Shown here: positions 1 through 31,528 of the stretch, one piece after another | Position numbering within the stretch: the first letter of the stretch is position 1 | How the letters are laid out: each line of letters begins with the position of its first letter | Source: Aeromonadales bacterium | GTDB taxonomy: Bacteria; Pseudomonadota; Gammaproteobacteria; Enterobacterales; GCA-002770795 | NCBI GenBank assembly: GCA_011322365.1 | Contig: DRNA01000172.1 | Coordinates: forward strand, 1-50,702 | Length of the DNA: 50,702 nt | Reading direction: 5' to 3' | The notes under the pieces: generated by a model | What the model was told of the DNA's origin: nothing | Databases searched by the model: none | What the model saw: only the letters and a program-made list of their open reading frames with translations | Made by a program: the position numbers and the translations under genes

Positions 1-1291
1 AGGTCTGTTCGATATAGATGGCGTGATGCGTGGTAAATATATGAGCAAGGCGAAATTTTTCTCCGCATTGGATCAGGGTTTTGCTTTTTGTGATGTGGTG
101 TTGGGTTGGGATTCCAGTGATGAGCTTTATGATAATGTCTCTTATACCGGCTGGCATACGGGTTACCCTGATGCTCCTGTCAGAATCATTCCGAATAGTT
201 GTCGTGCGGTGCCTTTTGAAGACAATATGTTGCTGTTTATGGCGGAATTTTGTCAGCAGGCGGAATCTCTTTGCCCACGTGGCGTGCTACGAAAAGTGAT
301 CGAAAAAGGCAAAGCGATGGGTTTTGAAGCGAGCGCGGCGTTTGAATATGAATTTTTTATGTTTAATGAAACCCCAGAGAGCATTCGCGAAAAAAACTAT
401 CAGAATCTTTCCCCCATTACTCCCGGCTCGTTTGGTTATTCCATGCTACGAAATTCTGTTCATGCGGAACTTTATCAGCAATTATTAGCCCTTGCCGAAG
501 CAATGGATTTTCCCATCGAAGGACTGCACACCGAAACCGGGCCAGGCGTTATTGAAGCCGCTATTACCTATGATAATGCCAGCAATGCAGCAGATAAGGC
601 GGCACTATTTAAAACCTTTACCAAAATCTGGGCACAGCGTAATAACATGATGGCAACCTTTATGGCGAAATGGTCTGAAGATTTGCCGGGACAAAGTGGT
701 CATATCCATATTTCGTTAAAAGACAGTAACGGTAATGCCGCTTTTTTTGATGAGACTAAAGAGCACAACATGAGTGAAATTCAACGCCATTTTGTCGCTG
801 GACAACAACAGTTAATGCCAGAATTTTTAGCCATGATAGCGCCAACGGTGAACAGTTATAGTCGCATGGTGCCGGGTCAATGGGCACCCCTTAATGCCAC
901 CTGGGGCATAGAAAACAGAACCACCGCGCTACGGGTTATTCCAGGGTCAGAAAAATCCCAACGGGTAGAGTACCGGCTGGGCGCGGCCGATGCGAATCCT
1001 TTCCTGGCATTAGCCGCTGCACTGGGATCAGGGCTTTATGGCATAGAACAAAAACTGCAGCCAACGGCCGCGATTGAAGGTAATGCCTATGAACAGGAAC
1101 AACCAGAAGCTCTGGCACTACCGCAAACCCTAACTGAAGCGGCACAGCGTTTAAAGCAGTCCGAGGTTGCCAACAATCTTTTCGGATCAGATTTTGTCGA
1201 TCATTTTGCCGCCTCCCGAGAGTGGGAAGAACGCCAATTTCGCCAAAAGGTAACCGACTGGGAGTTGCAGCGTTATTTTGAAATTATCTAG
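1..1291 (+). CDS. Glutamine synthetase family protein (gamma-glutamyl-amine synthetase-like), 5' end outside the window
   Basis: The frame is open from base 2 (GLFDIDGVMRGK...), so the listed GTG at 23 is not the real start. It reads as a GS catalytic domain throughout (GPGVIEAAITY, GQSGHIHISL, NSYSRMVPG, ENRTTALRV, VEYRLGAADANP). Confidence 0.85.
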   Translation, partial: GLFDIDGVMRGKYMSKAKFFSALDQGFAFCDVVLGWDSSDELYDNVSYTGWHTGYPDAPVRIIPNSCRAVPFEDNMLLFMAEFCQQAESLCPRGVLRKVIEKGKAMGFEASAAFEYEFFMFNETPESIREKNYQNLSPITPGSFGYSMLRNSVHAELYQQLLALAEAMDFPIEGLHTETGPGVIEAAITYDNASNAADKAALFKTFTKIWAQRNNMMATFMAKWSEDLPGQSGHIHISLKDSNGNAAFFDETKEHNMSEIQRHFVAGQQQLMPEFLAMIAPTVNSYSRMVPGQWAPLNATWGIENRTTALRVIPGSEKSQRVEYRLGAADANPFLALAAALGSGLYGIEQKLQPTAAIEGNAYEQEQPEALALPQTLTEAAQRLKQSEVANNLFGSDFVDHFAASREWEERQFRQKVTDWELQRYFEII

Positions 1292-1410
1292 GTAATGGTC
1301 AATAGTGTTTGTGCTTAAATTCCTTCGGGGTCATTGGACTAAGAGCAAATCTTTAAATTGACTTGCACTGATCCCATTATTTTCAGAAGACTAAAACGAC
1401 TACTAAATTC

Positions 1411-1789
1411 AAAAGCGAAAACCGTCAAGGGGAGATTACCGAATCTCCCCTTAACAATCCCCTGCGGCCCCCCGATCGCAAGCCCTGCGGGTCCCCGGAT
1501 TGAAAAATGTGCTTTCGAGTGGTCGTGCTACACAGACGTCCTGTCTGATCGCACTCAATCAGGCGTCCATGCCTGATTGACCACTGAGCACATTTTTAAA
1601 TCCGGCTTGCTCAAAGGGGGGAATCTCACCCCACTGTTCTATCTGAGAAACTTGTTCCTAACTATGAACGTACACTAGACTTCACATATGAAAATGTATT
1701 TTTTTCGAAACACGAAACACGCGCCTGAATTACTCAGTCATCTTGAGCGAAGTATAATGAAGTCGAAAGATCTTAAGAACCCACAACCA
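1411..1789 (+). repeat. Arm A of a long imperfect inverted repeat (partner 3744-4201)
   Basis: By-eye alignment with the reverse complement of 3744-4201. The outer hairpin 1427-1452 is identical in both arms and the blocks aacaatcccctgcggcc and gatcgcaagccctgcggg are shared. The arms also share the core 1495-1605 and a short inner palindrome, gtcatcttgagcg...gatcttaagaaccc. Confidence 0.85.
1495..1605 (+). other. Multi-hairpin structured core of arm A (candidate structured RNA or ssDNA element)
   Basis: Closing stem 1495-1513/1587-1605 (18 of 19 bp) and inner stem 1519-1524/1579-1584. There is a 4-bp stem 1525-1528/1551-1554 around hairpin 1533-1547, and a perfect 8-bp hairpin 1557-1578 with loop GTCCAT. 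Confidence 0.5.
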
Positions 1790-2275
1790 AAAGTTATTCA
1801 AAACATGTCCTACTTTGAGAAAAATATCTAATGTCCAGACATCACGCATCGTCAGCGATATATCAAGTGAACATAAATTCTGTGAAAGCTAAAAATCAAA
1901 TTTATGAGATAAAAATAAATTTTCGACATTCACTATGTTTGGCATGTAAAGCACAAAAGAAAGCACAAAAGGGACAGACACTTTCCCATTGTTGCTGAGT
2001 ACTTTTTATCTAGGAGTGCCTGTCCTTATTTCCTTGAACAATTGTTTGTCTTGGGTTTAACCATACCTTAAAACTGCCTTGTTTTGTATAGCAAAATTAC
2101 TAATGTTGAATTTTTCCTTACCCTGAAAGGTTTAGACAGCAGACAGGGCTTTAGTTATCGACCTTTTGTTTTAACAATTTAAACTTTGGAAAGAGTAAAT
2201 AACGCCGCAATATGGGGCGCATAAATGCTTGGCTAAAATTGGCGACGAAGGAGCACAAGCCAAGCGTGTGGAGTC

Positions 2276-2776
2276 CTACACATAATTACCTTGTAAGCTA
2301 CGCCCAAGTGCTGAACGAATTATGTTTATGTTTATCTTATTTTTACCCCAAGTCGCAACTGAAGACTGTTTGTAAGGGGAAGGATGAGAATTAATATAAA
2401 TATTGTCCTTTTCAAACTTGATAGTGATCAGTTCTCCCCAACTTCTCCATGTGCGCTTTGTCTCTGCAATGATTTCAGAGTTTTCCTTACTCTCCAACAC
2501 TTCCCAATCATGCTTTATTATTTCTTCCAAGCAAATCATATAATTTGCACTCGTACCGGGAAAATTCAGCGCTATAACTTTTAAATTTTCTTTTTGTTTA
2601 AAATGGAAACCCAAAGCCATTAACGTAAATGGAACAGCCATAATCAATGCTATTGGATCGAACTCAAGCATGAACAATGAGTACCCAGCCAAACCAATAA
2701 AAAAAGCGGGCAACACATACAGGAAAAACCAATCTTCCTTTCTCGGCTTTAGTTCTTTCTTCAACGCATACTCCAA
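2276..2776 (-). CDS. Hypothetical membrane protein (two N-terminal TM segments plus a soluble domain)
   Basis: 166-aa ORF with a TTG start. Hydrophobic stretches are FFLYVLPAFFIGLAGYSLFML and IALIMAVPFTLMALGF. No family was recognised. Confidence 0.45.
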   Translation of the reverse strand: MEYALKKELKPRKEDWFFLYVLPAFFIGLAGYSLFMLEFDPIALIMAVPFTLMALGFHFKQKENLKVIALNFPGTSANYMICLEEIIKHDWEVLESKENSEIIAETKRTWRSWGELITIKFEKDNIYINSHPSPYKQSSVATWGKNKININIIRSALGRSLQGNYV

Positions 2777-2885
2777 GTGCAGCTAAAGCCTAGCTCACCG
2801 CGCTGAGTGATGTGGCGACTTTTTTGTTGTACTTTGCAAAAAATGCTACACATTACGAAGTCCGGTGGAGCTACTTGTTAGAAAT

Positions 2886-3407
2886 TTATTCATTTATTAC
2901 CAACCCATAATACTCAATGATTTGCTTTGATGGGTATAGAAATTGTTTGTATCTCGCCCACTCAGGGTCTTGTTTTACATTTATATATGGTTTGCGGTCT
3001 TGGCAGTGTGTTGAGTAAAAACTGTTTAAAGCTTGCTCCGCTTCTTCCTTATTTTGTACGTAAATATAGTGCAACTGTTCATTTTGATAAGTAAATGTGC
3101 CTACATACTTGATTGGTATTTTTGACTCTAGATAGCTAACGAGAGCTTCTTGCAATTTGTTTAAACTATCGATTTGATTTGGACCAGGAAGGCCTTCTGT
3201 GTTCAATTTTTCATAGGTTATGCCAGTAACCATGACAAAAGGGTAATCAGTGACTGGAGCCAATTTGTTAAATCTCAAATCAACACGAGTAGAACTAGGA
3301 CCATTCTCTTGGCTGGATAGATAAGACCACCACTGTTCCTCAGCGGCTACTAAACCCGAAAAAAACAAGCCTATTACTATTATGATTCGGGACATTATTA
3401 GTCTCAT
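2886..3407 (-). CDS. Secreted DUF695-like protein
   Basis: Signal-like MRLIMSRIIIVIGLFFSGLVAAEE. The pattern W.Y....P....VDL....P....P...V, then GLP...Q...L..L...L and a C-terminal DPEWARYKQFLYP, resembles DUF695. The start was chosen at the ATG before the signal peptide; the ORF is open up to 3458. Confidence 0.5.
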   Translation of the reverse strand: MRLIMSRIIIVIGLFFSGLVAAEEQWWSYLSSQENGPSSTRVDLRFNKLAPVTDYPFVMVTGITYEKLNTEGLPGPNQIDSLNKLQEALVSYLESKIPIKYVGTFTYQNEQLHYIYVQNKEEAEQALNSFYSTHCQDRKPYINVKQDPEWARYKQFLYPSKQIIEYYGLVINE

Positions 3408-3743
3408 TTTATTTCTATCAGCTAATTCTAACGCAAATGGCATCTTAATACTTTTCACTATAATTCTTTTCTACTCTCATTTCAATTTGTGCCTTGTATT
3501 ACTCATAATTTAATTCAAAGACTTTTTGTTTATTAACCTAAATCTCTAAACTCTAATAAACACGGGTTTGTTAGCCTCTTCTCCATTTAGGTTGTTTCTT
3601 TTTTAGCTCGTTCCATGAAATATATACGCTGATGTTTTGACTTTCAAATTTAGACAAAATAGGCATTTTGCCTTTGTTTTCTGAAAGGCACTGCTAAAAG
3701 CCTGATGGTTTTTTGGGTAGTTTTGGTTTTCTGTAACAATGTA

Positions 3744-4201
3744 TGGTTGAGGGTTCTTAAGATCCTTCGATAAACTCAGGATGACAAAAAAGCGAGTTTC
3801 GAGAAATGATAGATTTTTAATAGTTATAAGCTTGAACAGAGGAGTGGGCTCCCCCCTTTAAGCAAGCCGGGTTTAAAAATGTGCTCAGTGGGCAAACGGA
3901 TATGGACATCCGATTGAGTGCGATCAGACACGGACAAGGTGAATGCCGTAGGCAGAGAGGGTGACCTGGGTTAAGTCTGTGTAGCACGACCACTCGAAAG
4001 TACATTTTTAAATCCGGGGTCCCGCAGGGCTTGCGATCTTGGCCGATAATAGCTTATCTCCAGGGAAGGAGTGTATGCAATAATCATGTTGGGAACATGA
4101 TTTGTCCTGCATGATCGGCATTCTCACCATCCATGGTGATCGGGCCGCAGGGGATTGTTAAGGGGAGATTCGGTAATCTCCCCTTAACGGTTTAGGCTTT
4201 T
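3744..4201 (-). repeat. Arm B of the long imperfect inverted repeat (partner 1411-1789)
   Basis: Its reverse complement aligns with arm A. It has the outer hairpin 4160-4185, the core 3867-4017, and the short inner palindrome gggttcttaagatccttcgataaactcaggatgac. It carries two extra internal segments (3930-3974 and about 4040-4140). Confidence 0.85.
3867..4017 (-). other. Multi-hairpin structured core of arm B
   Basis: Same architecture as 1495-1605. The closing stem is 17 of 19 bp. Hairpin 3894-3915 has the conserved loop, and three base pairs are changed on both strands relative to arm A. A 45-nt insertion sits in the loop of the small hairpin (stem 3925-3929/3975-3979). Confidence 0.5.
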
Positions 4202-4291
4202 CACTTCCAAAGCAATAGATATACAATACCGGCCATTATTGGTTAGAATAACTTATCATTGCCCCAACAGTTATAAACACTAAAAAACACT

Positions 4292-5683
4292 ATGCACCCA
4301 AAACAGATCACCCGTTCACCTATTGATGATTCCATTTATGTGGAGCGAGAATTGGCCAGCCCTGGTGCTATTGAAACTGCTCTGGTTACAGCCAGTAAAG
4401 CCCAGCAGCAATGGCAGAAAACTGGTGTGGCCGAACGGGCGGCCATTTGTCATGCTATGGTGGATGCTTTTATTGCCAATGAAGATGAAATTGCCGAGCA
4501 ACTTTGCTGGATGATGGGACGGCCTGTTCGTTATGCTAAAGGTGAGGTGGCGGGCATGGCTGAACGTGCGCGTTATATGATTGATATTGCGGCTGAGGCT
4601 CTGGCGCCCATTGAATTAGCTGAAAAACCGGGGTTTATTCGTTACATTAAACGCGAACCTCTGGGCGTGGTTTTTGTGGTTGCGCCCTGGAATTATCCCT
4701 ATCTGACGGCGGTTAATAGCATTGTTCCAGCAATTATGGCGGGCAATGCGGTGCTATTAAAGCACTCGGCACAAACACCTTTATGTGCTGAGCAGTTTGC
4801 CCGTGCATTTGATTTGGCGGGGTTGCCTGAAGGCGTGTTTCAATATTTGCACATGAGTCACAGTGATACGGAAAATATGATTAAAAATCCATTGATTGAC
4901 TATGTGGCTTTTACCGGCTCAGTAGCTGGTGGTGAAATGGTTGAACGGGCCAGTACCGGTCGTTTTATTGGCAAAGGTCTGGAACTTGGCGGTAAAGACC
5001 CTGCCTATGTGCGTGCTGATGCCGATATTGATTACGCCGTTGAAACCTGTGTGGATGGGGCATTTTTTAATTCCGGTCAATCCTGTTGTGGTATTGAACG
5101 TATTTATGTAGCCGCTCCGGTATTTGATGAGTTTGTGGAAAAAGCGGTGAAATTAATCAACGAGTATCGATTAGGCCGCTCCGATGAAATGGAAACAACT
5201 TTAGGTCCAATGGTAAGGGCCAGTGCAGCTGATTTTGTGCGAGGGCAAATTGATGAAGCCGTTAAAGCCGGTGCCATCGCACATATTGATAGCGGGCAGT
5301 TTCCTCTGGATCAACCGGGTTCTGCTTATCTGGCGCCGCAATTGTTAACCGGCCTGGATCACTCTATGAGCCTGATGCGAGATGAGAGTTTTGGACCGGT
5401 AGTGGGTGTGATAAAAGTTGACAGTGACGAACAAGCCATTGATTTGATGAATGATTCAGAATTTGGCCTGACCGCTTCTGTTTTCAGTTCGGATATTGAG
5501 GCGGCAACCGCAATTGGTGATCAACTGGATACCGGGACCTTTTTTATTAATCGTTGTGACTATCTTGACCCCGCGCTGGCCTGGGTCGGGGTTAAAAATT
5601 CCGGGCACGGTTGTACGCTTTCTGCGCTGGGGTATCACAATTTAACACGCCCTAAATCTTATCATTTAAAAACTGAAATTTGA
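4292..5683 (+). CDS. NAD(P)-dependent aldehyde dehydrogenase
   Basis: ALDH signatures are present: VVAPWNYP, FTGSVAGG, LELGGKDP and the catalytic-Cys region FFNSGQSCCGIERIYV. Confidence 0.9.
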   Translation: MHPKQITRSPIDDSIYVERELASPGAIETALVTASKAQQQWQKTGVAERAAICHAMVDAFIANEDEIAEQLCWMMGRPVRYAKGEVAGMAERARYMIDIAAEALAPIELAEKPGFIRYIKREPLGVVFVVAPWNYPYLTAVNSIVPAIMAGNAVLLKHSAQTPLCAEQFARAFDLAGLPEGVFQYLHMSHSDTENMIKNPLIDYVAFTGSVAGGEMVERASTGRFIGKGLELGGKDPAYVRADADIDYAVETCVDGAFFNSGQSCCGIERIYVAAPVFDEFVEKAVKLINEYRLGRSDEMETTLGPMVRASAADFVRGQIDEAVKAGAIAHIDSGQFPLDQPGSAYLAPQLLTGLDHSMSLMRDESFGPVVGVIKVDSDEQAIDLMNDSEFGLTASVFSSDIEAATAIGDQLDTGTFFINRCDYLDPALAWVGVKNSGHGCTLSALGYHNLTRPKSYHLKTEI

Positions 5684-5691
5684 GAACGCAT

Positions 5692-6870
5692 ATGGCGCTT
5701 GAACAATTTACCGCTAACTGGAACTACCCCACCAATATTCGACAGGGTCTGGGACGAATCAAAGAACTGCCGGATGTCTGTAAACAACTGGGTATGCAAG
5801 CGCCTTTATTGATTACCGATCCCGGACTTGCCGAAATGACTATAGTGACATCGGCTTGCAAAGCCTGTTGTGATGCCGGCCTGAGTTGTGAAATATTCTC
5901 GGATATTGTCAGTAACCCCACCGAGGAAAATGTGGCAAAGGGTGTTGAAGTCTATGGGCAAGGCGATCATGATGGCGTGATTGCCTTTGGTGGTGGCTCG
6001 GCCATAGATGCGGCAAAAGCGGTGGCATTGATGGTGGGACAGGATCGTCCATTGTGGGATTTCGAAGATATCGCGGATAACTGGAGCCGGGTGAATGTGG
6101 CTAAAATGGCTCCGGTTGTTGCCGTGCCCACCACGGCAGGCACCGGCTCGGAAGTGGGGCGTGCCTCGGTGATTACTGACAGTAAAAATCACATTAAGCG
6201 ACTCATTTTTCATCCAAAAATGCTACCTGAAATGGTGATTCTGGATGCGGAATTAACCTTTGGGCTACCGGCTCATCTGACTGCTGCAACCGGCATGGAT
6301 GCGTTTTCACATGCACTGGAAGCCTACTGTGCCGATTATTATCACCCCATGGCTGAAGGTATTGCATTGGAGGCCATCCGGCTGGTAAAGGATTATCTGC
6401 CTCGGGCCACCGAAAATGGCCAGGATCGGCAAGCACGTTCTCAATTACTGGTGGCATCCACCATGGGGGCTACGGCATTTCAACGGGGGCTGGGTGCGAT
6501 GCATGCACTGGCACATCCATTGGGCGCACTTTATAACAGCCACCATGGTTTACTGAACGCTATTCTGATGCCCTATGTTTTGCAGGCTAACCGAGCGGCA
6601 ATCGAAGTAAAAATAGCACGATTAGCCACTTATCTTGAGCTGCCTGATACCACTTTTTCCGGGTTTTTACGATGGGTAGTTGATTTGCGCGAACAACTGG
6701 GTATCCCGCATACCCTGGCTGACATTAATATTGATGAGGCTAAAAGTGAACAGATAGGGCAAATGGCTTTCGACGATCCCAGTGCTGCTGGTAACCCCGT
6801 GGCGTTTAGTGCATCTGAATACCGTCAACTTTTTGAAAACGCGCGCAGGGGTCGGTTATCGCTTGATTAA
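5692..6870 (+). CDS. Iron-containing (group III) alcohol dehydrogenase
   Basis: GGGSAIDAAKAVA and VPTTAGTGSE are present, plus His-rich metal-site blocks (GMDAFSHALEAY, MHALAHPLG). The ATG at 5692 is preferred over the TTG at 5680. Confidence 0.88.
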   Translation: MALEQFTANWNYPTNIRQGLGRIKELPDVCKQLGMQAPLLITDPGLAEMTIVTSACKACCDAGLSCEIFSDIVSNPTEENVAKGVEVYGQGDHDGVIAFGGGSAIDAAKAVALMVGQDRPLWDFEDIADNWSRVNVAKMAPVVAVPTTAGTGSEVGRASVITDSKNHIKRLIFHPKMLPEMVILDAELTFGLPAHLTAATGMDAFSHALEAYCADYYHPMAEGIALEAIRLVKDYLPRATENGQDRQARSQLLVASTMGATAFQRGLGAMHALAHPLGALYNSHHGLLNAILMPYVLQANRAAIEVKIARLATYLELPDTTFSGFLRWVVDLREQLGIPHTLADINIDEAKSEQIGQMAFDDPSAAGNPVAFSASEYRQLFENARRGRLSLD

Positions 6871-6947
6871 ATGGATCGCCATGCGTTAGATTGACATAAC
6901 AGCGTTTTAGCCGCAATTTCGGACTATATACTCGGACCATATACAAA

Positions 6948-8168
6948 ATGCATACAGCCTGCCATGAGTGCGATCTGTTAGTCGATATTCCTGACCTGCC
7001 CGAAGGCAGTAAAGCAGTTTGTCCGCGCTGTGATTATGTCATTACCTCAAAGCACAGGAATTCACAGGATCGGGTTTTGGCTTATGCCATCACCGCCTTA
7101 ATTTTTTTGATATTATCATTTATTTTTCCTTTTTTAACCTTTAGTGCTCAGGGCCAGGATAGAACCGTGACTCTGGTACAGAGCATTACCGTACTGGCTA
7201 ATGAGAATTTTATCAGTCTGTCGATTATAATTTTCAGTGCCATTATAGTTATACCGGCATTGTATTTGTTAAGTGCTATCTACATTTATATTTCGTTTAA
7301 AATAAAAAAATTATTGCCCTATACGGTCACCCAGTTAAAATTAATCGGGCATTTACAGCATTGGAGTATGGCTGAGATTTTTCTTATCGGTATTCTGGTT
7401 AGCTTCGTTAAAATTGCTTCATTAGCCGATGTGACACTTGGTCTGTCATTCTGGTCTTATGTGCTGTTTATTATTTTTATGACAGCGACTATTTTACATA
7501 TTGATCAACATCAGGCCTGGCGCTGGTTAATTGCTTTAAATCCTGAAAAACAAAGTAAACAGCATATTCCATCTGATTATAAAAGTTGTGATGTCTGTAT
7601 GAGTCTGGCAGAAGCAGGTGCAGAACACTGCCTTGTATGTGGCTCTAAGTTACATCATCGCATTGAAAACAGTTTACAGAAAACCTGGGCTCTTTTAATT
7701 ACCTCGGTCATATTATATATTCCTGCAAACCTGTTGCCGATTATGCATACGGTTTTTCTGGGTGAAGAAACAGCCAATACCCTATTAGGTGGTGTACTGG
7801 TTTTGTGGAAACACGGTTCCTACCCTATCGCCATTATTATTTTTATTGCCAGTGTGCTGGTGCCAGTGATAAAAATAGTGATACTGTCATGGCTTTGTTA
7901 TAGCATTCAAAGCCGAAGTCAGAAATCGTTTAAACAAAAAACCCGACTTTACCGTTTTACCGAATTGATTGGACGCTGGTCAATGGTGGATGTGTTTGTA
8001 GTAGCGATATTAGTGGCACTGATTAAATTGGGTAATATCATGAGTATTTATCCCGGTTGGGGTGCAGTCGCTTTTGCTGGTATGGTGGTGACCTCGGTGT
8101 TGGCTGCAATGAGTTTTGATCCAAGATTAATATGGGATAATGCAAATCAAGAGAGTGATCATGAGTGA
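6948..8168 (+). CDS. pqiA: Paraquat-inducible protein A (two PqiA repeats)
   Basis: There are two CxxC...CxxC zinc-ribbon-like segments (CHECD...CPRCD and CDVC...CLVCG), each followed by TM bundles. The gene precedes pqiB and pqiC. Confidence 0.88.
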   Translation: MHTACHECDLLVDIPDLPEGSKAVCPRCDYVITSKHRNSQDRVLAYAITALIFLILSFIFPFLTFSAQGQDRTVTLVQSITVLANENFISLSIIIFSAIIVIPALYLLSAIYIYISFKIKKLLPYTVTQLKLIGHLQHWSMAEIFLIGILVSFVKIASLADVTLGLSFWSYVLFIIFMTATILHIDQHQAWRWLIALNPEKQSKQHIPSDYKSCDVCMSLAEAGAEHCLVCGSKLHHRIENSLQKTWALLITSVILYIPANLLPIMHTVFLGEETANTLLGGVLVLWKHGSYPIAIIIFIASVLVPVIKIVILSWLCYSIQSRSQKSFKQKTRLYRFTELIGRWSMVDVFVVAILVALIKLGNIMSIYPGWGAVAFAGMVVTSVLAAMSFDPRLIWDNANQESDHE

Positions 8169-9807
8169 AGAAAAACACATTCCTCAAGCAAAAGTGAAAC
8201 CATTAACTTCAATTTCAAAAATCTGGTTAATTCCAATTGTTGCACTTTTTATTGGTGCATGGATGATATTTTTTCATCTTTATAGTAAAGGACCATTAAT
8301 AACCATAAGTTTTAATACAGCTGAAGGTGTTGAAATTGGTAAAACGAAAATAAAAATAAAAAATGTGGATGTGGGTGTTGTAGAGGACATTGAACTCAGT
8401 GAAAAACTTGACCGGGTGATTGTCACGGCGAGGATTCACAAACAGGACAGTAAATTTTTGACCACCGGTAGTGATTTCTGGGTGGTAAAGCCGAGAGTGG
8501 GTAAGGGTGGCATTTCAGGATTAAGCACGATTCTTTCGGGTGCCTATATAGAATTTGCACCGGGCCTTACCGATGAGAAAGCAGATAGTTTTGAAGGTCT
8601 GGACAGTGCACCGGTAACACCATCTGGAACCAAAGGACTGCATGTGACATTAGAAAGTGGTGCTTTTCGATCGCTGGATGTGGGTGATCAGGTATTATTT
8701 CACGGCGTTGAAGTCGGGCGCATAGAATATGTTTATTTTAATACAGAAGAACGTCGTGTGTATTATGATGCCTTTATCGAAAGTCCCCATGATGAACTTA
8801 TTACCACTAACACCAAATTCTGGGAACTCAATGGTTTTGAAATTGAATTGTCTGCCAATGGGATTGAAGTACAAACCGGCACATTGGAAACCATGATTTC
8901 CGGAGGTGTTACCTTTGATGTGCCTAATAAAATGCCTAGGGGAGAACGTGTTACCAGGCGAAAAGTATTTACCGTTTACCCGAGTAAAAATTCCATTAAT
9001 GATAATCAATATCGGTATTCGCTACAGTTTATTTTACTTTTTGATGATTCGATCCGGGGTTTAAAGCCGGGGGCACCGGTTGAATACCGTGGCATTAAGA
9101 TCGGCAACGTTACCCGTACTGATATTGACTATAAACAGATCAGTAATATTCTTGATAAAAATACCTTCATACCTGTGATGATTTCTCTGGAGCCAGGGCG
9201 TATGGGTTTTGACGATTCAGAGCAGATACTTCCCAAAGTAAAAGAAGAAATAAAAAACCTGATTAAAAAAGGCTTAAGAGGTGCTTTAGGGACAGGAAAT
9301 CTGCTCACAGGAAGCAAATATATTGAGTTACAATACGAGCAAGGGGTGACTCATGATATTGAGGAATTTGATACACTCACTGTTATCCCAACTTTAGAAG
9401 GTCAGTTTAGTCAGATCCTGAAAAAAGTCAGTAATATTATGGATAAACTGTATAAGTTGCCGCTGGAGCCAATGATAATCAGTGCAGACGACACATTAAA
9501 ACAGCTGAGTAAAACCCTGACCGATTTTTCAACAGCCTCTAAACAATTAGAAATTTTGTTAAAGCAATCAACTGATACAGAACTTGTTAATACACTGCAA
9601 GAGACCCTGGACAATTTTTCCAGATTAGCGAGGGATTTTTCATCCGGGTCGAAAACAAATGAAGAGCTACAAAGCACCTTACGCTTTATGCGAAAAAATT
9701 TACAGGAACTGGAACCCTTATTGAGGCAACTCAATCAGAAACCGAACAGTCTTATTTTTTCTAATCAGAAAAATGAAGATATCGTACCTGAAGGACAAAA
9801 CCAATGA
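8161..9807 (+). CDS. pqiB: Intermembrane transport protein PqiB (multi-MCE domain)
   Basis: N-terminal TM segment (IWLIPIVALFIGAWMIFF), repeated MCE-like blocks and a C-terminal coiled-coil region. The ATG at 8161 overlaps the pqiA stop by 8 nt. Confidence 0.88.
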   Translation: MSEEKHIPQAKVKPLTSISKIWLIPIVALFIGAWMIFFHLYSKGPLITISFNTAEGVEIGKTKIKIKNVDVGVVEDIELSEKLDRVIVTARIHKQDSKFLTTGSDFWVVKPRVGKGGISGLSTILSGAYIEFAPGLTDEKADSFEGLDSAPVTPSGTKGLHVTLESGAFRSLDVGDQVLFHGVEVGRIEYVYFNTEERRVYYDAFIESPHDELITTNTKFWELNGFEIELSANGIEVQTGTLETMISGGVTFDVPNKMPRGERVTRRKVFTVYPSKNSINDNQYRYSLQFILLFDDSIRGLKPGAPVEYRGIKIGNVTRTDIDYKQISNILDKNTFIPVMISLEPGRMGFDDSEQILPKVKEEIKNLIKKGLRGALGTGNLLTGSKYIELQYEQGVTHDIEEFDTLTVIPTLEGQFSQILKKVSNIMDKLYKLPLEPMIISADDTLKQLSKTLTDFSTASKQLEILLKQSTDTELVNTLQETLDNFSRLARDFSSGSKTNEELQSTLRFMRKNLQELEPLLRQLNQKPNSLIFSNQKNEDIVPEGQNQ

Positions 9808-10400
9808 AAAAAATAATACTTATACTTTCAGTTTTCTTTTTATTCAGCTGTACTTCATCTACTGAAAGAGTTCGCTATTATAGTTTGACTCTTGATAGTA
9901 AAATTCAGGCTCCGGTTAAAGATACTGTAAAACAAAAACAACTGGTTCTTATAGATCCCATTCGCTTAGCAAGATTTTTAAGGCAACCAGGGCTGGTGTT
10001 GCAAAGAGGTAATAATGAATTAATTACTGCTAACTATCACCGTTGGGCTGAACCACTGGATGAATTAATTAGTAAACTTTTACTAATTAATTTAAACAAT
10101 AAAAGTGAGAGGTTTTATTTCGAATCTTCAGATGGTTTTATTCGTGAGTCTGGCGCACCCCGATTAAAATTATATTTTGATAAGTTTCATGCCACCGATC
10201 ATGCGACGGTAGTTATTAGTGGGCGCTATGGATTAGTAGAGCCGGAAGCGAAAACACTTCAACTTACTGAATTTTCAATAGAAGAGATACAGACACATGA
10301 CGGTTATCTGGATACCGTTGAAAAGTTGAAGAAGACACTGGATAAACTGGCAGATGAAATATTATTGACACTCAACAATATGAACCTTGATAGGCTTTAA
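9804..10400 (+). CDS. pqiC: PqiC/YmbA-type auxiliary lipoprotein
   Basis: Lipobox FLFSC after a signal peptide. ATGA overlap with the pqiB stop. Motifs ANYHRWAEPL and the gene size fit the ABC-type transport auxiliary lipoprotein family. Confidence 0.8.
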   Translation: MKKIILILSVFFLFSCTSSTERVRYYSLTLDSKIQAPVKDTVKQKQLVLIDPIRLARFLRQPGLVLQRGNNELITANYHRWAEPLDELISKLLLINLNNKSERFYFESSDGFIRESGAPRLKLYFDKFHATDHATVVISGRYGLVEPEAKTLQLTEFSIEEIQTHDGYLDTVEKLKKTLDKLADEILLTLNNMNLDRL

Positions 10401-10432
10401 ATGAATAAAATAAAGATATTTCAGGTGGGATA

Positions 10433-10570
10433 GATTCATTATTCATAAGTAGCTAATTAAGAAAAATATAACTGAAAAATGGATGTCATCCCGACCTTGT
10501 GGAGGGATCTAAAAGCTTCAAAGCACATCTTCAAGTAGAGCGGGTATATAATTGCTCATGAATAAATCGC
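10433..10570. mobile_element. Shortened copy of the nested-palindrome MITE family
   Basis: The left end attcataagtagctaattaagaaaaatataactgaaaaatggatgtcatcccgacc matches the 14104 and 20467 copies. The right end is ...catgaataaatcgc. The central part is deleted. Confidence 0.6.
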
Positions 10571-10756
10571 TTGAGCAAAGCTGCAGAAATAAATAATTTA
10601 TTACAATATAAAATCTTATTCTTCACAAAAACACCTTAACCAGAGATGTTATTTGCACTCAATTCAGTTAACATCAATGATTCTCTGTTTTTATGCCAGG
10701 CAGCACGAGTATAAATTAATAGCCATAAGCCAATTGTTCACCCAGGAGATAAGTCT

Positions 10757-13700
10757 ATGAAAGGGTTCAAAATCAGCAGCAGAATGATAAAAATTACAGC
10801 ATTGGCGATGATCGGATGGTTAAATTTCGGTGCGGTAACAGCCTCAACTAAATTATTATCACAACCCGATATTTCCGATAATCAGATTACTTTTGTTTAT
10901 GCGGGTGATATCTGGATCGCACAAAAAGATGGCAGCTTACCCAGACGCCTGACTTCAATGGCAGCTGATGAACAAAATCCTTATTTTTCACCTGATGGTA
11001 AATGGATTGCTTTTTCAGCTAATTATAATAATAACTTTGATGTTTATCTGATACCGACTTCAGGTGGTCAGGCCAGAAGACTGACCTGGTATCCAGCTGC
11101 TGACTGGGTTAATGGCTGGAGCCCTGATGGAAAGTTTATTTTATTTACCAGCCGTAGAGAAATGCGGCAGGGCCGTAGTGCACAGGCCTGGCAGGTGGCT
11201 GCAAAGGGTGGATTTCCAGGCAGGATTATGGATGCGATTGTACAACAGGCAAGTTGGTCAGCGGATGGCAAAACTTTGGCCTATCAGCCGTATATCACCG
11301 CTCATCGTGGTCCAAGTGGCTGGCGTAACCATCGGGGTGGATCAACGCCGCCGATCTGGATTTTATCCCCTGGTGCTAATAATTATATTGAAATTCCTCA
11401 TGTACGAGCCAGTGATACCAATCCCATGTGGGTAGGAGGCGATGTCTTTTTTATCTCTGATCGCGATCGGGCTAAAAATATCTATCAGTATCAATTAAAA
11501 GATAAAAAACTGATACAGAAAACTCAGCATAAAAACTGGGATATTCAATCAGCTAATACCGATGGTAAAACGATTATCTTTAGCAGTGGCGGCGAGCTTC
11601 ATCTTTTAAATCCAGAAAATAATAAAGTCACGGATATCAGTATTGATATCCACCCGGATCTGCCCGAACTTAGAACACAATGGAAAGATGCCATGCCGGC
11701 AATGGAAAAGGTGGTGTTTTCACCCACAGGTAAACGCGCTCTAATTAGTGCCAGGGGTGAAATCTTTACCGTACCGCTGAAAGAGGGTTCGGTAAGGAAC
11801 CTGACAAAAACCGATGGTATACGAGAACGGGATGGGCTCTGGTCACCCAAAGGCGATAAGATTGCTTATAGTTCTGATAAAGATGGTGTACAAAAACTTA
11901 TTATTCGCGATCAATATGGCGATAAAATTATCCACCGTTATGCTCTGGGAAAACCAGCAGATTATCAATTACTGTTATGGGCTGGTAAGGGCAATAAAAT
12001 CATTTATGCCGATAATCATTTGCACCTCTGGTCCATCAATATAAATTCAGGTAAGCGCAGATTAATTGATACCAATAACAGACGATCGCCCTTTAATATT
12101 TCACTTTCTAAAGATGGCCGTTGGTTAGCCTACAATAAAAGTGGCGCTAATTTTTTAAGTAATATTAATTTATATGATTTTAAATCAGCAACACAAACAG
12201 TTTTAACCGATGGTATGAGTCTTGCTGATAATCCGGTTTTTAGCCCGGATGGGAAATACCTGTATTTTACCGCATCCACCAATGCTGGTACTACTGCGGT
12301 CGGTCTGGATATGAGCACTCAGGAGCGTCCGGTTAGAATGGGGATCTATGCGTTTGTTCTGGCAAAAGATGGTAAGTCGCCATTGATACCAACTTCAGAT
12401 GAAGAAGAAATAAAAAATAAAGATAAAAAGACTGATAAGGATAAAACGGATGATAAAAACGAAAAGGACAATGTGGTAAAAGTGGATTTGGCCGGCATTC
12501 AAAATAGGATGGTCGCTTTACCTGTTGATCAGAAGGCGTATTCTGCATTGAATGTCACAGCGGATGGTAACTTATTGTATATCAATACTGATCAACCCGG
12601 TGACAGTGTCAAAGCTAACGGAAATCCGGAGAATGATAGTCGATTAGTCTACTTTGACATGGAAGATCAAAAGGTTGCCACTATAGTTGAACATGTTCGT
12701 CAGTTTAAATTAAGTGAAGATGGTAAACATTTACTCGCCATAACCAATGAAGGGAAAATAATTAGCGCGGAAATTAAAGAGAAAATAAAAGCGCCTTTAA
12801 AAACCGAACCATTAAATACCGCTGATGTTAAGCTGGAAATTAATCCACGCCATGAATGGTCGCAAATTTTTAATGAAGTCTGGCGAACAGAGCGGGATTA
12901 TTTTTATGCGAAAAATATGCATGGTCTGGACTGGAAAGCGCTGGGTACAAAATACCGTAACCTGTTACCCTGGGTTGCTAGACGAGCAGATCTTAATCGG
13001 TTAATGGTGGATATGATTTCAGAAATGGAAGTGGGTCATAATCGAGTTTTTGGTGGTGACCTTCCAAAAGAAAAACCTGTTCCTGTGGGGCTTCTGGGTG
13101 CGGACATACGCTTAAAAAATAATACCTATGTGGTTGAAAAAATATATACCGGTGAAAACTGGAACCCGGCATTAAAAGCACCTCTGGCGGCACCGGGACT
13201 TGGCATTAAGGTGGGTGATAGTATTGTTGCTGTTAATGGAACCGCCGTTGATGGAAGTCGGAATCTGTTTTCTCTGTTTGAAAATACAGTCGGCAAGCAG
13301 GTCACATTGACAGTAAAAGCAAAAAACAGGCAACTAAAATCAAAGCATAAAATTAAAAATAAAACCCACAAAGTCATTATTGAACCTATCGCCAATGAAA
13401 GGGGTTTACGCTTCTGGTCGTGGATTGAAGAGAATCGTAAAGCCGTAGATAAAGCCACTAAAGGGAAGGTCGGTTATGTTTATTTACCGGATACGGCAGC
13501 GGGAGGTTTTACTTTATTTAATCGCATGTTTTTTGCCCAAACCGATAAGAAAGCCATGATTATTGATGAGCGTCGTAATAGTGGTGGACAGGCAGCTAAT
13601 TATATCACCGACATTCTAACACGAAAATATCTTGCCAGCTGGAAAGATCGTGATGGTATGCTGTTTGATACACCAGGTGGCGCGGTATATGGTCCCAAAG

Positions 13701-14103: not shown

Positions 14104-14300
14104 ATAAGTAAGTCATAAGTAGGTACTTAAGAAAAATATAACTGAAAAAGGGGCGTCATTACGAGAGCTTGCCCCATGACCTTAGGGAGTGCTTTGGGTG
14201 CTGTAGTGGAGGAATCTTTCAGTGGCAGTAGTATGAGCAGAGCAAGATCTCTCCACTACGGTCGAGATGACAGGCTATTTTTTCTTAGAGATGCCATATA
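14104..14300. mobile_element. MITE copy (nested palindrome with an extra 33-bp module in the left arm)
   Basis: Runs from cataagtaggtacttaagaaaaatataactgaaaaaggggcgtcatt to ccactacggtcgagatgac, followed by a degenerate right end. The module cttgccccatgaccttagggagtgctttgggtg lies at 14168-14200. Confidence 0.7.
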
Positions 14301-20453: not shown

Positions 20454-20466
20454 ACTAATTAAATGT

Positions 20467-20638
20467 AATAAATCTTCATAGGTAGGTACTTAAGGCAAAG
20501 ATAGTATGTCATCTCGACCGTAGTGGAGAGATCTCGCTCTGGTAGTACCTTTGACACTGTAAGATTCCTCCACCACGGTCGGAATGACACTTCTTTTTTG
20601 TTGTGTTTTCTCTTAAGTACCTACCTATGAATAAATCT
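20467..20638. mobile_element. Complete MITE (nested palindrome)
   Basis: Perfect 19-bp terminal inverted repeat, tcataggtaggtacttaag (20476-20494) with cttaagtacctacctatga (20612-20630). Inner inverted repeat is gtcatctcgaccgtagtggagagatct with agattcctccaccacggtcggaatgac. No ORF. Confidence 0.8.
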
Positions 20639-20657
20639 TAACAATGGGAAAATAAAA

Positions 20658-22001: not shown

Positions 22002-23231
22002 ATGTTTAAACTTGTAAATCTGCCGACTGAAATTAAACAATACCTGATCATCACCGGTAATTACTGGGCTTTCACGCTCACCGATGGTGCGCTACGTATG
22101 CTGGTAGTGCTACATTTTTATGAGCTGGGTTACAGTCCGCTACAAATTGCCATGTTGTTTCTGTTTTATGAAATTTTTGGGGTGATTACCAACCTTATTG
22201 GGGGTTGGTTAGGGGCAAGTCTGGGATTAAACCGCACTATGAATATGGGGTTGGGTCTACAGGTTGTGGCACTTTCTATGTTGTTGGTACCCAACACCTT
22301 ACTTACTATCCCCTGGGTGATGGCAGCACAGGCATTATCAGGTATTGCTAAAGATCTGAATAAAATGAGTGCAAAAAGTGCCATTAAAATTCTGGTGCCC
22401 AAAGAGGCTCAAAGCCAGCTTTATAAATGGGTAGCCATACTTACCGGATCTAAAAATACTTTAAAGGGTGCAGGTTTTTTCCTTGGGGGTGCATTGCTTA
22501 CTGTCCTGGGATTTAAAGGTGCCATTTTTTACATGGCATCGTTGTTGGTTATTGTGTGGATATTCAGCTTAATGGCATTGAAGCAGGATCTGGGAAAAGC
22601 AACAGCCAAACCTAAATTCAGCGAGTTGTTTTCCAAAAGCAGGGCTATTAATTATCTTTCAGCCGCACGGATGTTTTTATTTGGTTCTCGTGATGTCTGG
22701 TTTGTGGTGGCACTGCCTGTTTATCTGGATGCGGTTTTCCATTGGGATCATTGGACCGTGGGCGGGTTTATGGCACTCTGGGTTATCGGTTATGGAATTG
22801 TTCAGGGATTTGCACCTAAAATCACCCAAAAAAAGACCTCAAAAGTACCCGATGGAAAAAGTGCCTTTGTCTGGGCGGTCGCCCTTGCCATTATTCCAGC
22901 ATCCATGGCAGTAATGATGAGCAATCAATATCATCTGGTCGAGGTATTAATCGGTGGCCTGATGACTTTTGGTGTATTATTTGCGATTAATTCATCATTA
23001 CACAGTTATCTTATTGTCAGTTATGCCAGTGATGATGGTGTCTCGTTGGATGTGGGGTTTTACTATATGGCTAATGCCATGGGGCGTTTAATGGGAACGG
23101 TTTTATCCGGCTGGGTATATCAGCAATTCGGTTTGGTTGCCTGCTTATGGATCTCGGCTATTTTTATTATACTCGCAGCCGCTCTGTCATTGGGCCTGCC
23201 TCAGCATAAAATTGCCCTGGAGCATCGATGA
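22002..23231 (+). CDS. arsJ: MFS efflux permease ArsJ
   Basis: 12-TM MFS protein with N-terminal YWAFTLTDGALRMLVVLHFYELGYSP, as in ArsJ. It shows the canonical pairing with GAPDH. Confidence 0.8.
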   Translation: MFKLVNLPTEIKQYLIITGNYWAFTLTDGALRMLVVLHFYELGYSPLQIAMLFLFYEIFGVITNLIGGWLGASLGLNRTMNMGLGLQVVALSMLLVPNTLLTIPWVMAAQALSGIAKDLNKMSAKSAIKILVPKEAQSQLYKWVAILTGSKNTLKGAGFFLGGALLTVLGFKGAIFYMASLLVIVWIFSLMALKQDLGKATAKPKFSELFSKSRAINYLSAARMFLFGSRDVWFVVALPVYLDAVFHWDHWTVGGFMALWVIGYGIVQGFAPKITQKKTSKVPDGKSAFVWAVALAIIPASMAVMMSNQYHLVEVLIGGLMTFGVLFAINSSLHSYLIVSYASDDGVSLDVGFYYMANAMGRLMGTVLSGWVYQQFGLVACLWISAIFIILAAALSLGLPQHKIALEHR

Positions 23232-23617
23232 AAACAACTACTATCGGTCAGGCTGCGAAACAACTGGAGATCCATATTGAAACCATACGTTTTTATGAAC
23301 GTAAGGGATTAATCGAACAACCCCAAAAACCCGAGAGCGGTTATCGGCATTATTCAACCGATATCATTAATCGTATTCGTTTTATAAAACGCGCCCAGGA
23401 ACTGGGGTTTACTCTGAAAGAAATTGTTAATTTGCTCTCATTAAATGATCAACCCTGTACTCAGGTTCAGGATTTAGCGGAACAAAAATTGGCTTCCGTG
23501 CAGGAAAAAGTGAAAGATTTACAACGTCTTGAATTCGCTCTAAAGGAAATGATTGTGCAGTGTATGAACAACCCCGACGATGATCATTGCCCTATCATCG
23601 AAGCCCTTCAACCCTGA
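23228..23617 (+). CDS. merR: MerR, Hg(II)-responsive transcriptional regulator
   Basis: N-terminal HTH IGQAAKQLEIHIETIRFYERKGL. Cysteines at residues 77, 112 and 121 give the 35/9 spacing of the Hg-binding Cys triad. The ATG overlaps the arsJ stop (ATGA). Confidence 0.88.
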   Translation: MKTTTIGQAAKQLEIHIETIRFYERKGLIEQPQKPESGYRHYSTDIINRIRFIKRAQELGFTLKEIVNLLSLNDQPCTQVQDLAEQKLASVQEKVKDLQRLEFALKEMIVQCMNNPDDDHCPIIEALQP

Positions 23618-23641
23618 AAACGCCAAAGCTGATGGAATGGC

Positions 23642-23673
23642 TTGACTCCGTAGTAAAGTACGGGGTTTATACT
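23642..23673 (+). promoter_or_regulatory. MerR-type promoter/operator
   Basis: TTGACT (23642-23647), dyad CCGTA-N6-TACGG inside the spacer (23648-23663), then TATACT (23668-23673). This gives an over-long 19-20 nt spacer, as in mer operators. Confidence 0.7.
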
Positions 23674-23710
23674 GGAAAAAGTGATTGAAAACAGGTTGAG
23701 GACAATTGAA

Positions 23711-24160
23711 ATGAACAATGTTTTAAGTTTGGTTACCCGAATTGGTGATAAGGCAAGCTCTCTGGGTGCTGTAGTCTCTGCTATGGGGTGTGCTATGTGT
23801 TTTCCCGCCATTGCCAGTTTGGGTGGAGCTATTGGCCTGGGCTTTCTGGAACAATGGGAATGGACTTTTATTAATACCTGGCTGCCTGCTTTTGCCTGGA
23901 TTGCACTGGTGTTAAATGGATTAGGCTGGTTTAGCCACAGACAATGGAAACGAAGTGCCTGGGGCATGTTAGGCCCAATTTTATTGTTGTTGTCTTTGTA
24001 CCCATTTTTCCCCTACGCCTGGAGTATTTATGTGACTTATTCTGCATTGTTTTTAATGGTGGCAGTCTCATTGTGGGACATTTTTTCGCCTGCCAACAAA
24101 CACTGTGATAATGAGCGTTGTGAAGCCACTTCAACTACTAGCCAGGCTACAGGGGAATAA
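23711..24160 (+). CDS. merC: Mercury transporter MerC
   Basis: MNNVLSLVTRIGDKASSLGAVVSAMGCAMCFPAIASLGGAIGLGFL closely parallels the remembered Tn21 MerC N-terminus. It has four TM segments and WFSHRQW. GAGGA lies upstream of the ATG at 23711. Confidence 0.8.
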   Translation: MNNVLSLVTRIGDKASSLGAVVSAMGCAMCFPAIASLGGAIGLGFLEQWEWTFINTWLPAFAWIALVLNGLGWFSHRQWKRSAWGMLGPILLLLSLYPFFPYAWSIYVTYSALFLMVAVSLWDIFSPANKHCDNERCEATSTTSQATGE

Positions 24161-24162
24161 TT

Positions 24163-27902: not shown

Positions 27903-27989
27903 CATATCTTTTATTTATGATTCAGGTGCTACGCTTATTACTATTTATATGGTAATAGTCTTATCATGTAGTGTTTACTTTTAATATCA

Positions 27990-28175
27990 TAATTAGGAGC
28001 TCAAGAAAAAGATAACTGAGAAAAGGGGTGTCATTCCGACCCTAGTGGAGGAATCTTTCAGAGATAGTAGTATTGGCAGAGCAAGATCTCTGCACTACGG
28101 CACCCAAAGCACTCCCTACGGTCATCGGGCAAGTTTTTGAGATTTTTCCTAAAGTGCCTGCTTATGACTTAAAGG
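27990..28175. mobile_element. MITE copy (33-bp module in the right arm, inverted)
   Basis: Left arm ...gataactgagaaaaggggtgtcattccgaccctagtggaggaatct. The centre matches the 14104 copy. Module cacccaaagcactccctacggtcatcgggcaag lies at 28101-28133. The element ends about 20 nt before the kinase start. Confidence 0.7.
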
Positions 28176-31133: not shown

Positions 31134-31528
31134 AGATGCATGTTTCAGTGTTTAGCTGGTCAATCCGAACAAGTCACAACTCACAGGGAAAGAAAATGCT
31201 CCATGATTTTTCTTTCTTCATATAGTCCGGCCATGGACATAAATGGCTTGCCCCTTACAAGAGTTGCAAAACTTCTGCTCCCAGCTTATTCATAAAGAAG
31301 TGATGTATATCTTTTGGGTCATTCATTAAATTGTAGTAAAATTAAATATATGTAATACGAACAGGTTTAAATTAAATCAAACACCGCAATAGTAATATTT
31401 TTAATGATCTGGCCACACTAACTGATGCCGGGATTTCTACACTGGATGCCGCAAAACGTGTTGCTCAGTCTCACTCGGATCTGCAGGCCTGGTCAAGAGT
31501 TATTTCACGTTTACAGGCAGGTAATCCT

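Follow-up and report, generated by a model that had tools for sequence, protein, structure and literature searches.

A divergent TwoAYGGAY-type doublet enclosing integron-type cassettes in an operon spacer of an uncultured marine gammaproteobacterium

The function of TwoAYGGAY, an RNA motif widespread among bacteria, has been an open question ever since 2010, when the motif was reported from human gut samples, gamma-Proteobacteria and Clostridiales and rated 'probably RNA', not cis-regulatory (Weinberg et al. 2010, PMC2864571). Both of its loops fit a model for sites that CsrA binds, and it was proposed to be a CsrA-sequestering small RNA (sRNA) (Gardner and Eldai 2015, PMC4333381); Rfam places it in clan CL00106 (Csr-Rsm protein-binding). 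Binding of CsrA or RsmA by TwoAYGGAY has never been demonstrated in the literature covered here. A preprint dated 24 September 2026 describes versions from Pseudomonadota in which the basal stem is elongated and further hairpins and large structural extensions occur; these are present in about 10 to 202 copies per genome and show covariation across thousands of copies. Doublets are common among them, 68% of these are divergent, the median spacing is 249 bp (interquartile range (IQR) 163-312), and in Pseudomonas fluorescens SBW25 the family is linked to arrays of repetitive extragenic palindromic (REP) sequences. The authors read this as a mobile-element-like expansion of unresolved function, leaving movement and role open, and integrons are not mentioned (10.64898/2026.09.22.753630). 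Here we examine two copies of such an element in a contig of 50,702 nucleotides (DRNA01000172.1, assembly GCA_011322365.1; the window, meaning this whole stretch), which derives from a hydrothermal-vent metagenome and belongs to an uncultured marine gammaproteobacterium whose kinship with named genera is only distant. Neither is the element new nor its mechanism established; its genomic context is more interesting than the element itself. What is new is the insertion status of the stretch 1292-4291, which provides an empty-site comparison for a TwoAYGGAY insertion, and the presence of two integron-type cassettes exactly between the two TwoAYGGAY copies, at the centre of the doublet.

Scanned against Rfam 15, the window yields a single match above threshold, RF01731 (TwoAYGGAY RNA), at 1488-1612 on the minus strand, scoring 46.9 bits against a gathering score of 43, with E = 1.5 × 10−4 for the whole window and an alignment that spans the full model. 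On the plus strand the same scan finds no RF01731 match at this place. We have little doubt that this sequence, copy A, belongs to the family, even with the outer stem of the Rfam (Clostridia-type) model mostly deleted in the alignment. An original prediction, made from the letters of the sequence, had described the element on the plus strand and had left the motif unrecognised, accepting that an Rfam assignment would overturn this. The scan does so, and the strand described is the complement of the relevant one: the plus-strand loops GTCCAT and GTCCT are AUGGAC and AGGAC on the minus strand, the AYGGAY-type loops that name the family. The multi-hairpin element is hence a known, catalogued one, and what is new about it is that it comes from a little-sampled lineage and that one of its copies is a variant. 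The inverted second copy that had been proposed at 3867-4017 is confirmed by aligning the two. This copy B has no Rfam match even at E ≤ 5 and is tied to TwoAYGGAY only via its 94% core identity to copy A and a covariance model, R1, which we built from copy A together with a trimmed copy B and which scores the copies at 196 and 164.6 bits. The copies and their parts are as follows.

1466-1623, minus strand: copy A, TwoAYGGAY core with elongated basal stem (RF01731 at 1488-1612; R1; fold z = -6.5)
1556-1579, minus strand: hairpin 1 of copy A, 9-bp stem with loop AUGGAC (plus-strand GTCCAT at 1565-1570, AATCAGGC-GTCCAT-GCCTGATT); three compensatory pairs relative to copy B
1533-1547, minus strand: hairpin 2 of copy A, CAGAC/GUCUG stem with the 5-nt loop AGGAC (plus-strand CAGAC-gtcct-GTCTG)
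3849-4044, plus strand: copy B, core as in copy A, hairpin 2 extended by 39 nt (R1 164.6 bits; no Rfam call)
4039-4141, plus strand: palindrome-rich 103-nt insertion in the 3' half of the copy B basal stem, absent from copy A

All stems and loops that the original prediction had named are present, including the closing stem 1495-1513/1587-1605, which pairs at 18 of 19 positions, and the further copy A stems that read GTGGTC/GACCAC and GTGC/GCAC on the plus strand. The core of about 110 nt in which they had been placed turns out to be a small part of the whole, since homology between the copies runs from about 1405-1806 in copy A against 3722-4207 in copy B. The basal stem likewise reaches beyond the Rfam match, to 1466-1623 and 3849-4044, with CCC(CCC)/GGG(GGG) and GCAAGCC/GGCUUGC pairing in both copies; in copy A, CCCCCC...GGGGGG and GCAAGCC/GGCUUGC enclose the closing stem just mentioned. 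A three-way junction of the basal stem and two hairpins is found in the minimum free energy (MFE) and centroid structures of both copies and in the alifold consensus. The modelled structure exceeds chance: copy A has an MFE z-score of -6.5 and copy B one of -4.7, and none of the shuffles folds equally well. The 103-nt insertion has GATC on both sides and contains the palindromes GGCCGAT...ATCGGC, ATCATGTT...AACATGAT and CACCATCCATGGTG.

The way in which the two copies differ bears on both structure and strand. Three double substitutions in hairpin 1 (A-U to G-C, G-C to A-U and C-G to U-A), reported for the last hairpin in the original prediction, are real, and the 6-nt loop AUGGAC is invariant between the copies; one pair of this hairpin that is broken in copy B had been missed, and reads T.T in the plus-strand sense of copy A and A.A on the complementary strand. 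For hairpin 2 the CAGAC/GTCTG base is kept in copy B as had been said, but the enclosed loop, of which nothing had been said, measures 45 nt there and 5 in copy A, the arrangement being CAGAC-ACGGAC-[39-nt insertion 3936-3974]-GUCUG. Judged as AYGGAY loops, hairpin 2 of copy A is thus one base short at AGGAC, and the ACGGAC of copy B is outside any terminal loop. Eight substitutions fall at paired positions, 6 of them making up the three compensatory pairs and 2 leading to G.U, and no pair of the consensus structure is broken. The two one-sided changes (A to G and C to U) give G.U on the Rfam strand and A.C mismatches on the strand described before, and because they pair only on the Rfam strand, they independently support the minus-strand assignment.

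Could all of this have arisen with no selected function, as a palindromic duplication that is at most a bidirectional terminator, the hairpin 1 changes being due to chance or gene conversion? There being only two sequences, a column-shuffle control does not reach significance (65/500), and hairpin 1 holds 7 of the 14 core substitutions, which could be a patch copied from another family member. Against this we have an independently built covariance model matched above its curated threshold, pairing kept on one strand by 8 of 8 paired-position substitutions, loops that are identical and match the family-defining AYGGAY motif, and the published covariation over thousands of copies (10.64898/2026.09.22.753630), and we consider an element of no selected function highly improbable. 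As the two-copy shuffle control is not significant, the statistical weight rests on the covariance-model match and the published family; that match, along with the pairing-preserving differences between the copies, supports the claim in the original prediction of selection on structure rather than on sequence. A protein-coding element was also considered and rejected: the repeat-spanning open reading frames (ORFs) 1358-1576, 3817-4005 and 4008-4130 have no Pfam match, one copy has a 103-nt indel, and the substitutions track pairing.

As copy A is encoded on the minus strand and copy B on the plus, the doublet is divergent; the homology in the RNA sense begins about 180 nt (copy A) and about 125 nt (copy B) upstream of the core. 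Outside the cores, the shared parts are these.

1417-1462, minus strand: 3' tail hairpin of copy A, core AAGGGGAGAU-UCGGUA-AUCUCCCCUU, followed by a U-rich tract (terminator scan)
4142-4207, plus strand: 3' tail of copy B, hairpin at 4157-4188 as in copy A, U-tract interrupted
1624-1806, minus strand: 5' flank of copy A, shared with copy B save for indels, unstructured; includes a 20-nt box, GGGTTCTTAAGATCTTTCGA, at 1763-1782
3722-3848, plus strand: 5' flank of copy B; box GGGTTCTTAAGATCCTTCGA at 3751-3770; weak promoter-like ATGACA-18-AATGAT at 3781-3810
Reconstructed doublet centre: ...CCAAAAGTTA joined to TAACAATGTATGG...

The final 44 nt of the 3' tail are identical in both copies. The copy A tail hairpin is terminator-like, and read on the plus strand it would also terminate the upstream glutamine-synthetase-like gene. 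In the 5' flanks the 20-nt box, which is GGGTTCTTAAGATCYTTCGA in the RNA sense, is found at only these two places in the window, with 0.01 expected, and the copy A flank is presumed to be a promoter or regulatory region. Since the flanks start with (C/A)TAAC and end with GTTA, we considered whether they might be attC sites and each copy a cassette; as single-stranded DNA (ssDNA) they fold no better than shuffles (z from -1.1 to +1.0), and this idea was dropped.

By Pfam, the gene to the left of the doublet is of the glutamine-synthetase family (stop at 1291) and the one to the right is an aldehyde dehydrogenase (start at 4292; best named match 75% identical), followed by an iron-dependent alcohol dehydrogenase and PqiA/MlaD genes. 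The space between the first two is taken up as follows.

1292-4291, no strand: whole intergenic stretch of 3000 nt, insertion relative to related genomes; inverted-repeat unit at about 1405-4207

The nearest relative in the protein collection, GCA_054009875.1 (78% identical aldehyde dehydrogenase), has the same gene order with a spacer of 30 nt. Both genes are neighbours in 77 related loci; in 76 of these no more than 446 nt separate them, and the median spacer over all 77 is 43 nt. We read the 3.0-kb stretch as an insertion into an otherwise tightly conserved operon, and as the spacer is a few tens of nt in relatives, arrival by insertion is here documented, and not inferred from copy number. 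The sole larger spacer among the 77 loci is 1847 nt, in the metagenome-assembled genome (MAG) NORP108, and holds a 527-aa gene on the opposite strand (3951-5534 of locus L009). We tried this 1.85-kb spacer as a related element and rejected it, the gene being an ordinary, unrelated one. It is nonetheless a separate insertion at the same glutamine-synthetase/aldehyde-dehydrogenase spacer, which has therefore been struck more than once. Another difference from the nearest relative is a gene with a TonB_C domain between the alcohol dehydrogenase gene and pqiA there (11645-12076 of its locus, L002), which is not in the window at 6870-6948.

Whichever reading is right, the upstream gene gains a terminator from the insertion, and the aldehyde and alcohol dehydrogenase genes are severed from their former promoter or operon partner; promoter-like sites at 4198-4249 may now serve these two genes. 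Because a conserved three-gene operon has been split, a physiological cost or a rewiring at the locus is to be expected. As for the ends of the insertion, the sole flanking direct repeat is CCATTATT, 8 nt long, at 1374-1381 and 4233-4240. It is a weak candidate for a target-site duplication, since about 0.05 such repeats are expected by chance and it is positioned 25-30 nt outside the recognisable arms.

Between the two 5' flanks is a cargo that has the composition of foreign DNA and that we can in large part assign.

1807-3721, minus strand: AT-rich cargo of 1.9 kb (31-40% GC) between the 5' flanks; integron-type cassettes at 2200-3576 plus about 400 nt without assignment at 1807-2200
2886-3458, minus strand: cassette gene, DUF695 protein with a signal-peptide-like N-terminus (Pfam PF05117, 2.6 × 10−22)
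2785-2883, minus strand: attC1, CTAACAAG...GAGCUAGGCTTTAGC, homologous to the attC of the Glaciecola DUF695 cassette; 3' core GTT now TTT
2276-2776, minus strand: second cassette gene, a membrane protein of 166 aa (or shorter) with no Pfam family
2200-2296, minus strand: attC2, CTTACAAGG...GCGGCGTTATTT, like two attC sites of the Glaciecola array

The nearest named homologue of the DUF695 protein (79%) is from Glaciecola sp. MF2-115, where it is encoded in a run of small co-oriented genes. The retrieved stretch of that genome (JBLBVM010000056.1, positions 1-12522) is a chromosomal integron-type array with at least 15 small genes downstream of recQ, most of which are followed by an imperfect palindrome of the form YTAACAA...GCGTTAKR, and so has the look of a textbook cassette array; an integrase is absent from positions 1-12522. 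At the DNA level, window 3417-2783 matches the Glaciecola cassette including its attC (5991-6627) with 81% identity over 639 nt, and two further attC sites in that array are matched by window 2277-2199, at 86% over 79 nt and 90% over 41 nt. Within the window attC sites the 3' core of attC1 is TTTAGC versus GTTAGG in the Glaciecola site, and the 5' core of attC2 is CTTACAA (TAAC to TTAC); as ssDNA they fold only modestly better than shuffles, with z-scores of -2.2 and -2.6. From their sequences, then, these sites appear to be decayed. A strict RYYYAAC/GTTRRRY scan finds no attC in the window and only 3 matches in the Glaciecola array, and being too strict even for that array it was set aside in favour of homology.

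An attI site is likewise not found in the window, and among the window ORFs searched against Pfam (41 in all, covering 39 of the 42 that reach 120 aa along with 4 shorter ones) there is no integrase, other recombinase, transposase or REP-associated tyrosine transposase (RAYT). The cargo thus appears to be two integron-type cassettes forming a small attC cluster lacking an integrase, given that no integrase is among these ORFs. Clusters of attC sites lacking an integrase are reportedly a known class, called CALIN. The likeness concerns the cargo only: small co-oriented genes are each followed by attC-like imperfect palindromes with a YTAACAA start and a GCGTTA-type end, with 81-90% DNA identity to the Glaciecola cassettes and attC sites and, in a sister strain, an IS110-family insertion in attC1. 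The differences are the mutated core triplets (GTT to TTT in attC1, TAAC to TTAC in attC2) and the position of the array between two TwoAYGGAY elements inside a metabolic operon.

The sister strain is represented by two contigs from the JOHN19-1 metagenomes in ENA, L216 and L217, which have the same two cassettes at 99% identity. Sister material is deposited in ENA under ERZ940665/SRR4453772 and, for the JOHN19-1 metagenomes, under ERZ23491057 and ERZ23491061. We had tried these contigs as the DUF695 and 166-aa gene cassettes in two different contexts, and rejected this, since they are one array split by an insertion sequence (IS) of the IS110 family (PF01548/PF02371) in attC1 at TCTAA/CAAG (L216 1-731 and L217 1-1008; window 2876-2880). 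An IS1111 subgroup of the IS110 family targets attC sites specifically, which would fit an IS110-family element in attC1. Homologues of the 166-aa gene are found in arrays of small genes or beside IS110 transposases, and a distant one (in L218) has an IS110 transposase immediately downstream.

How did doublet and cassettes come together? Either the doublet would have come first, with the cassettes entering its centre later, or the whole 2.8-kb unit would have moved together. The sequences favour the doublet-first order, because the shared 5' flanks total about 310 nt, like normal doublet spacing (IQR 163-312 bp; 10.64898/2026.09.22.753630), and because the arms have diverged by about 6-8% and differ by large indels of 39 and 103 nt. 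The core-to-core distance here is 2.2 kb, as against about 250 bp in TwoAYGGAY doublets, because the cassettes lie between the copies. In the joint version, 1405-4207 (2.8 kb) would be one non-autonomous transposon-like element, moved whole, with the TwoAYGGAY arms as its terminal inverted repeats and the cassettes as its cargo. Long imperfect terminal inverted repeats do surround AT-rich foreign DNA, relatives are without the whole stretch, the sister strain has the same cassette pair at 99% identity, and CCATTATT is a candidate 8-bp direct repeat at 1374-1381 and 4233-4240. That repeat is 25-30 nt beyond the arm homology, however, with a chance expectation of about 5%, and the divergence and indels of the arms argue against a recent single event. 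None of the searches made turned up the unit a second time. Doublets of the family normally contain no cargo and have a median spacing of 249 bp (10.64898/2026.09.22.753630), so that later entry of cassettes into an existing doublet is at least as likely, and a single composite transposon seems to us improbable.

As to what the doublet is, our combined reading is of a mobile-element-like pair of sRNA genes, each transcribed outward, with two GGA loops that would together bind one CsrA/RsmA dimer. This reading, which comes from sequence and modelled structure, we consider about equally apt to prove right or wrong. Transcription would run outward from the centre and end at each 3' hairpin, giving predicted RNAs of about 200-260 nt for copy A and more than 350 nt for copy B. 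The GGA loops, which copy A has 28 nt apart, would occupy both RNA-binding faces of one dimer, and the RNA would titrate CsrA/RsmA in the manner of CsrB and RsmX/Y/Z, though with low valency. The spread of the element would be that of a non-autonomous mobile element relying on a protein whose gene is elsewhere.

Several features place the copies close to both kinds of described system. As in TwoAYGGAY generally, one basal stem carries two hairpins in succession, whose loops are AUGGAC and A(C)GGAC, and copy A scores above the gathering score; the points of difference are the AGGAC in hairpin 2 of copy A, and the ACGGAC plus 39-nt extension in the uncalled copy B. The extended Pseudomonadota form is matched in the elongated basal stem, the divergent doublet, the large extension in one copy and the gammaproteobacterial host, and is not matched in the 5' GMTBT array and the 3' REP-type repeats, neither of which is present here. 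With the Csr/Rsm sRNAs (CsrB, CsrC, RsmX/Y/Z; clan CL00106) our element shares GGA in hairpin loops, a terminator-like 3' hairpin and the clan itself. One CsrA dimer is said to bridge sites 10-63 nt apart, and the 28-nt loop spacing is within that range. The C-AUGGAC-G context of the hairpin 1 loop in copy A fits a CANGGANG-type Rsm site, which we take to be the consensus. The known sponges have 5-22 GGA motifs in loops against two here, a GacA/UvrY box is not present here, and our element is duplicated and mobile-element-like.

A number of observations weigh against the sRNA reading. Only two GGA motifs per copy are in hairpin loops, and at 7 in 256 nt overall GGA is not enriched, the rest being mostly in stems. 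The hairpin 2 loop of copy A is a 5-nt AGGAC, and the ACGGAC of copy B is outside a terminal loop. There are only two copies to compare, and the column-shuffle control on them is the non-significant one given above. The two 5' flanks do not share a convincing sigma-70 promoter, their weak matches being out of register. Neither 5' flank has the GacA/UvrY-type sequence TGTAAG-N6-CTTACA, even when 3 mismatches are allowed (whole window: 13 matches, 25 expected). An array of GMTBT(T) 5-6-mers within 200 nt upstream is also lacking, with 1 and 0 matches to the six published 5-mers against a window background of 1.1 per 200 nt, as are the large 3' repeats of the Pseudomonas type, and the window ORFs searched against Pfam encode no mobilising enzyme. 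Multi-copy mobile behaviour, moreover, is unusual for Csr/Rsm sponges.

The main rival is an element that works as DNA. The hairpins would then be ssDNA recognition structures of a transposase or recombinase acting in trans, the divergent doublet would be the mobile unit, and the transcript would be incidental, in analogy to REP/REPIN sequences for RAYT enzymes, or to IS200/IS605 ends for TnpA. This accounts equally well for the doublet, in which the copies form inverted arms of about 400 nt, and for an insertion that is seen relative to 76 of 77 related loci. It is also in line with the lack of a conserved strong promoter in the 5' flanks, and with the extreme copy-number variation and REP association in Pseudomonas (10.64898/2026.09.22.753630). 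DNA hairpins tolerate G.T wobbles too, so the strand asymmetry described above cannot separate RNA from ssDNA. On the other side, no transposase or RAYT gene was found among the ORFs searched in the 50.7 kb, and there is no clear target-site duplication, only the 8-nt repeat with its chance expectation of about 5%. The invariant GGA loops and the terminator-like hairpin and U-tract in transcript orientation are explained directly by an RNA and not by a transposase site, and the motif was rated 'probably RNA' (Weinberg et al. 2010, PMC2864571). Set beside REPIN/REP (RAYT) sequences and miniature inverted-repeat transposable elements (MITEs), our copies are likewise intergenic, structured, non-coding repeats in an inverted doublet and inserted relative to relatives; they differ in having as each arm a 160-nt three-way junction plus flanks, where those have a 20-40-nt palindrome, as well as in having no RAYT or transposase nearby and no clear target-site duplication. 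Weighing both sides, we regard a purely DNA-level element as rather unlikely, and continue with the outwardly transcribed sRNA pair.

The position of the cassettes raises a further idea: integron cassettes may land preferentially in the middle of a divergent TwoAYGGAY doublet, or the doublet may be their vehicle. The doublet would supply outward terminators, and possibly promoters, that insulate the cargo. If this were true, a mobile Csr/Rsm-type sRNA element would be tied to how cassettes spread beyond integrons and enter core operons; we consider it a shade more doubtful even than the composite transposon.

Further copies were looked for in several collections. When R1 and a descriptor of two GGA hairpins were applied to syntenic loci of 80 related genomes, 1.5 Mb in total, the window copies were the only ones found. 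A two-anchor pattern flanking hairpin 1 has 0 matches in genome and Joint Genome Institute (JGI) metagenome contig collections, both without the source species, and blastn against plasmids gives no match to the element. The junction 16-mer has 8 viral and at least 120 metagenome matches, all random, none of them with TwoAYGGAY context or an R1 match, and three other viral scans have 0 matches. A hint comes from L001, a same-species hydrothermal-vent metagenome contig (99.9% identical), which starts exactly at 4041, the edge of the 103-nt insertion. The longest identity shared by the window copies is 44 bases and the assembly of L001 used k = 127, so that a break at this place hints at further near-identical copies or at polymorphism, without proving either; such copies or polymorphism would also be in keeping with a DNA-level element.

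Elsewhere the window contains other repeats. A MITE-like intergenic family unrelated to TwoAYGGAY, about 170-200 nt long and with no Rfam match, is found at 10443-10550, 14109-14290, 20466-20640 and 27987-28171, its terminal inverted repeats being TCATAAGTAGGTACTTAAGAAAAA...TTTTTCCTAAAGTACCTACTTATGA and its inner palindrome TGTCATTCCGA..GTAGTGGAGGAATCTT..AAGATCTCTCCACTACGGTCGAGATGACA. At 32394-32507 there are four tandem 23-nt repeats, GCTCGGAATGACAGAGGAGTGGG, with a motif, GGAATGACA, that is common to the MITE-like family. A 198-nt direct repeat (78% identical) occurs at 30903-31100 and 31490-31687, 587 nt apart; its second copy overlaps the 5' end of ORF 31529-32284, which has only a partial match to type II secretion protein F. 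Finally, a MerR-family regulator, MerC and a pyridine-nucleotide-disulphide oxidoreductase are encoded in a row at 23228-25608, resembling a mercury-resistance operon, and this group is within the 7.4-kb interval between the MITE-like copies at 20466-20640 and 27987-28171.

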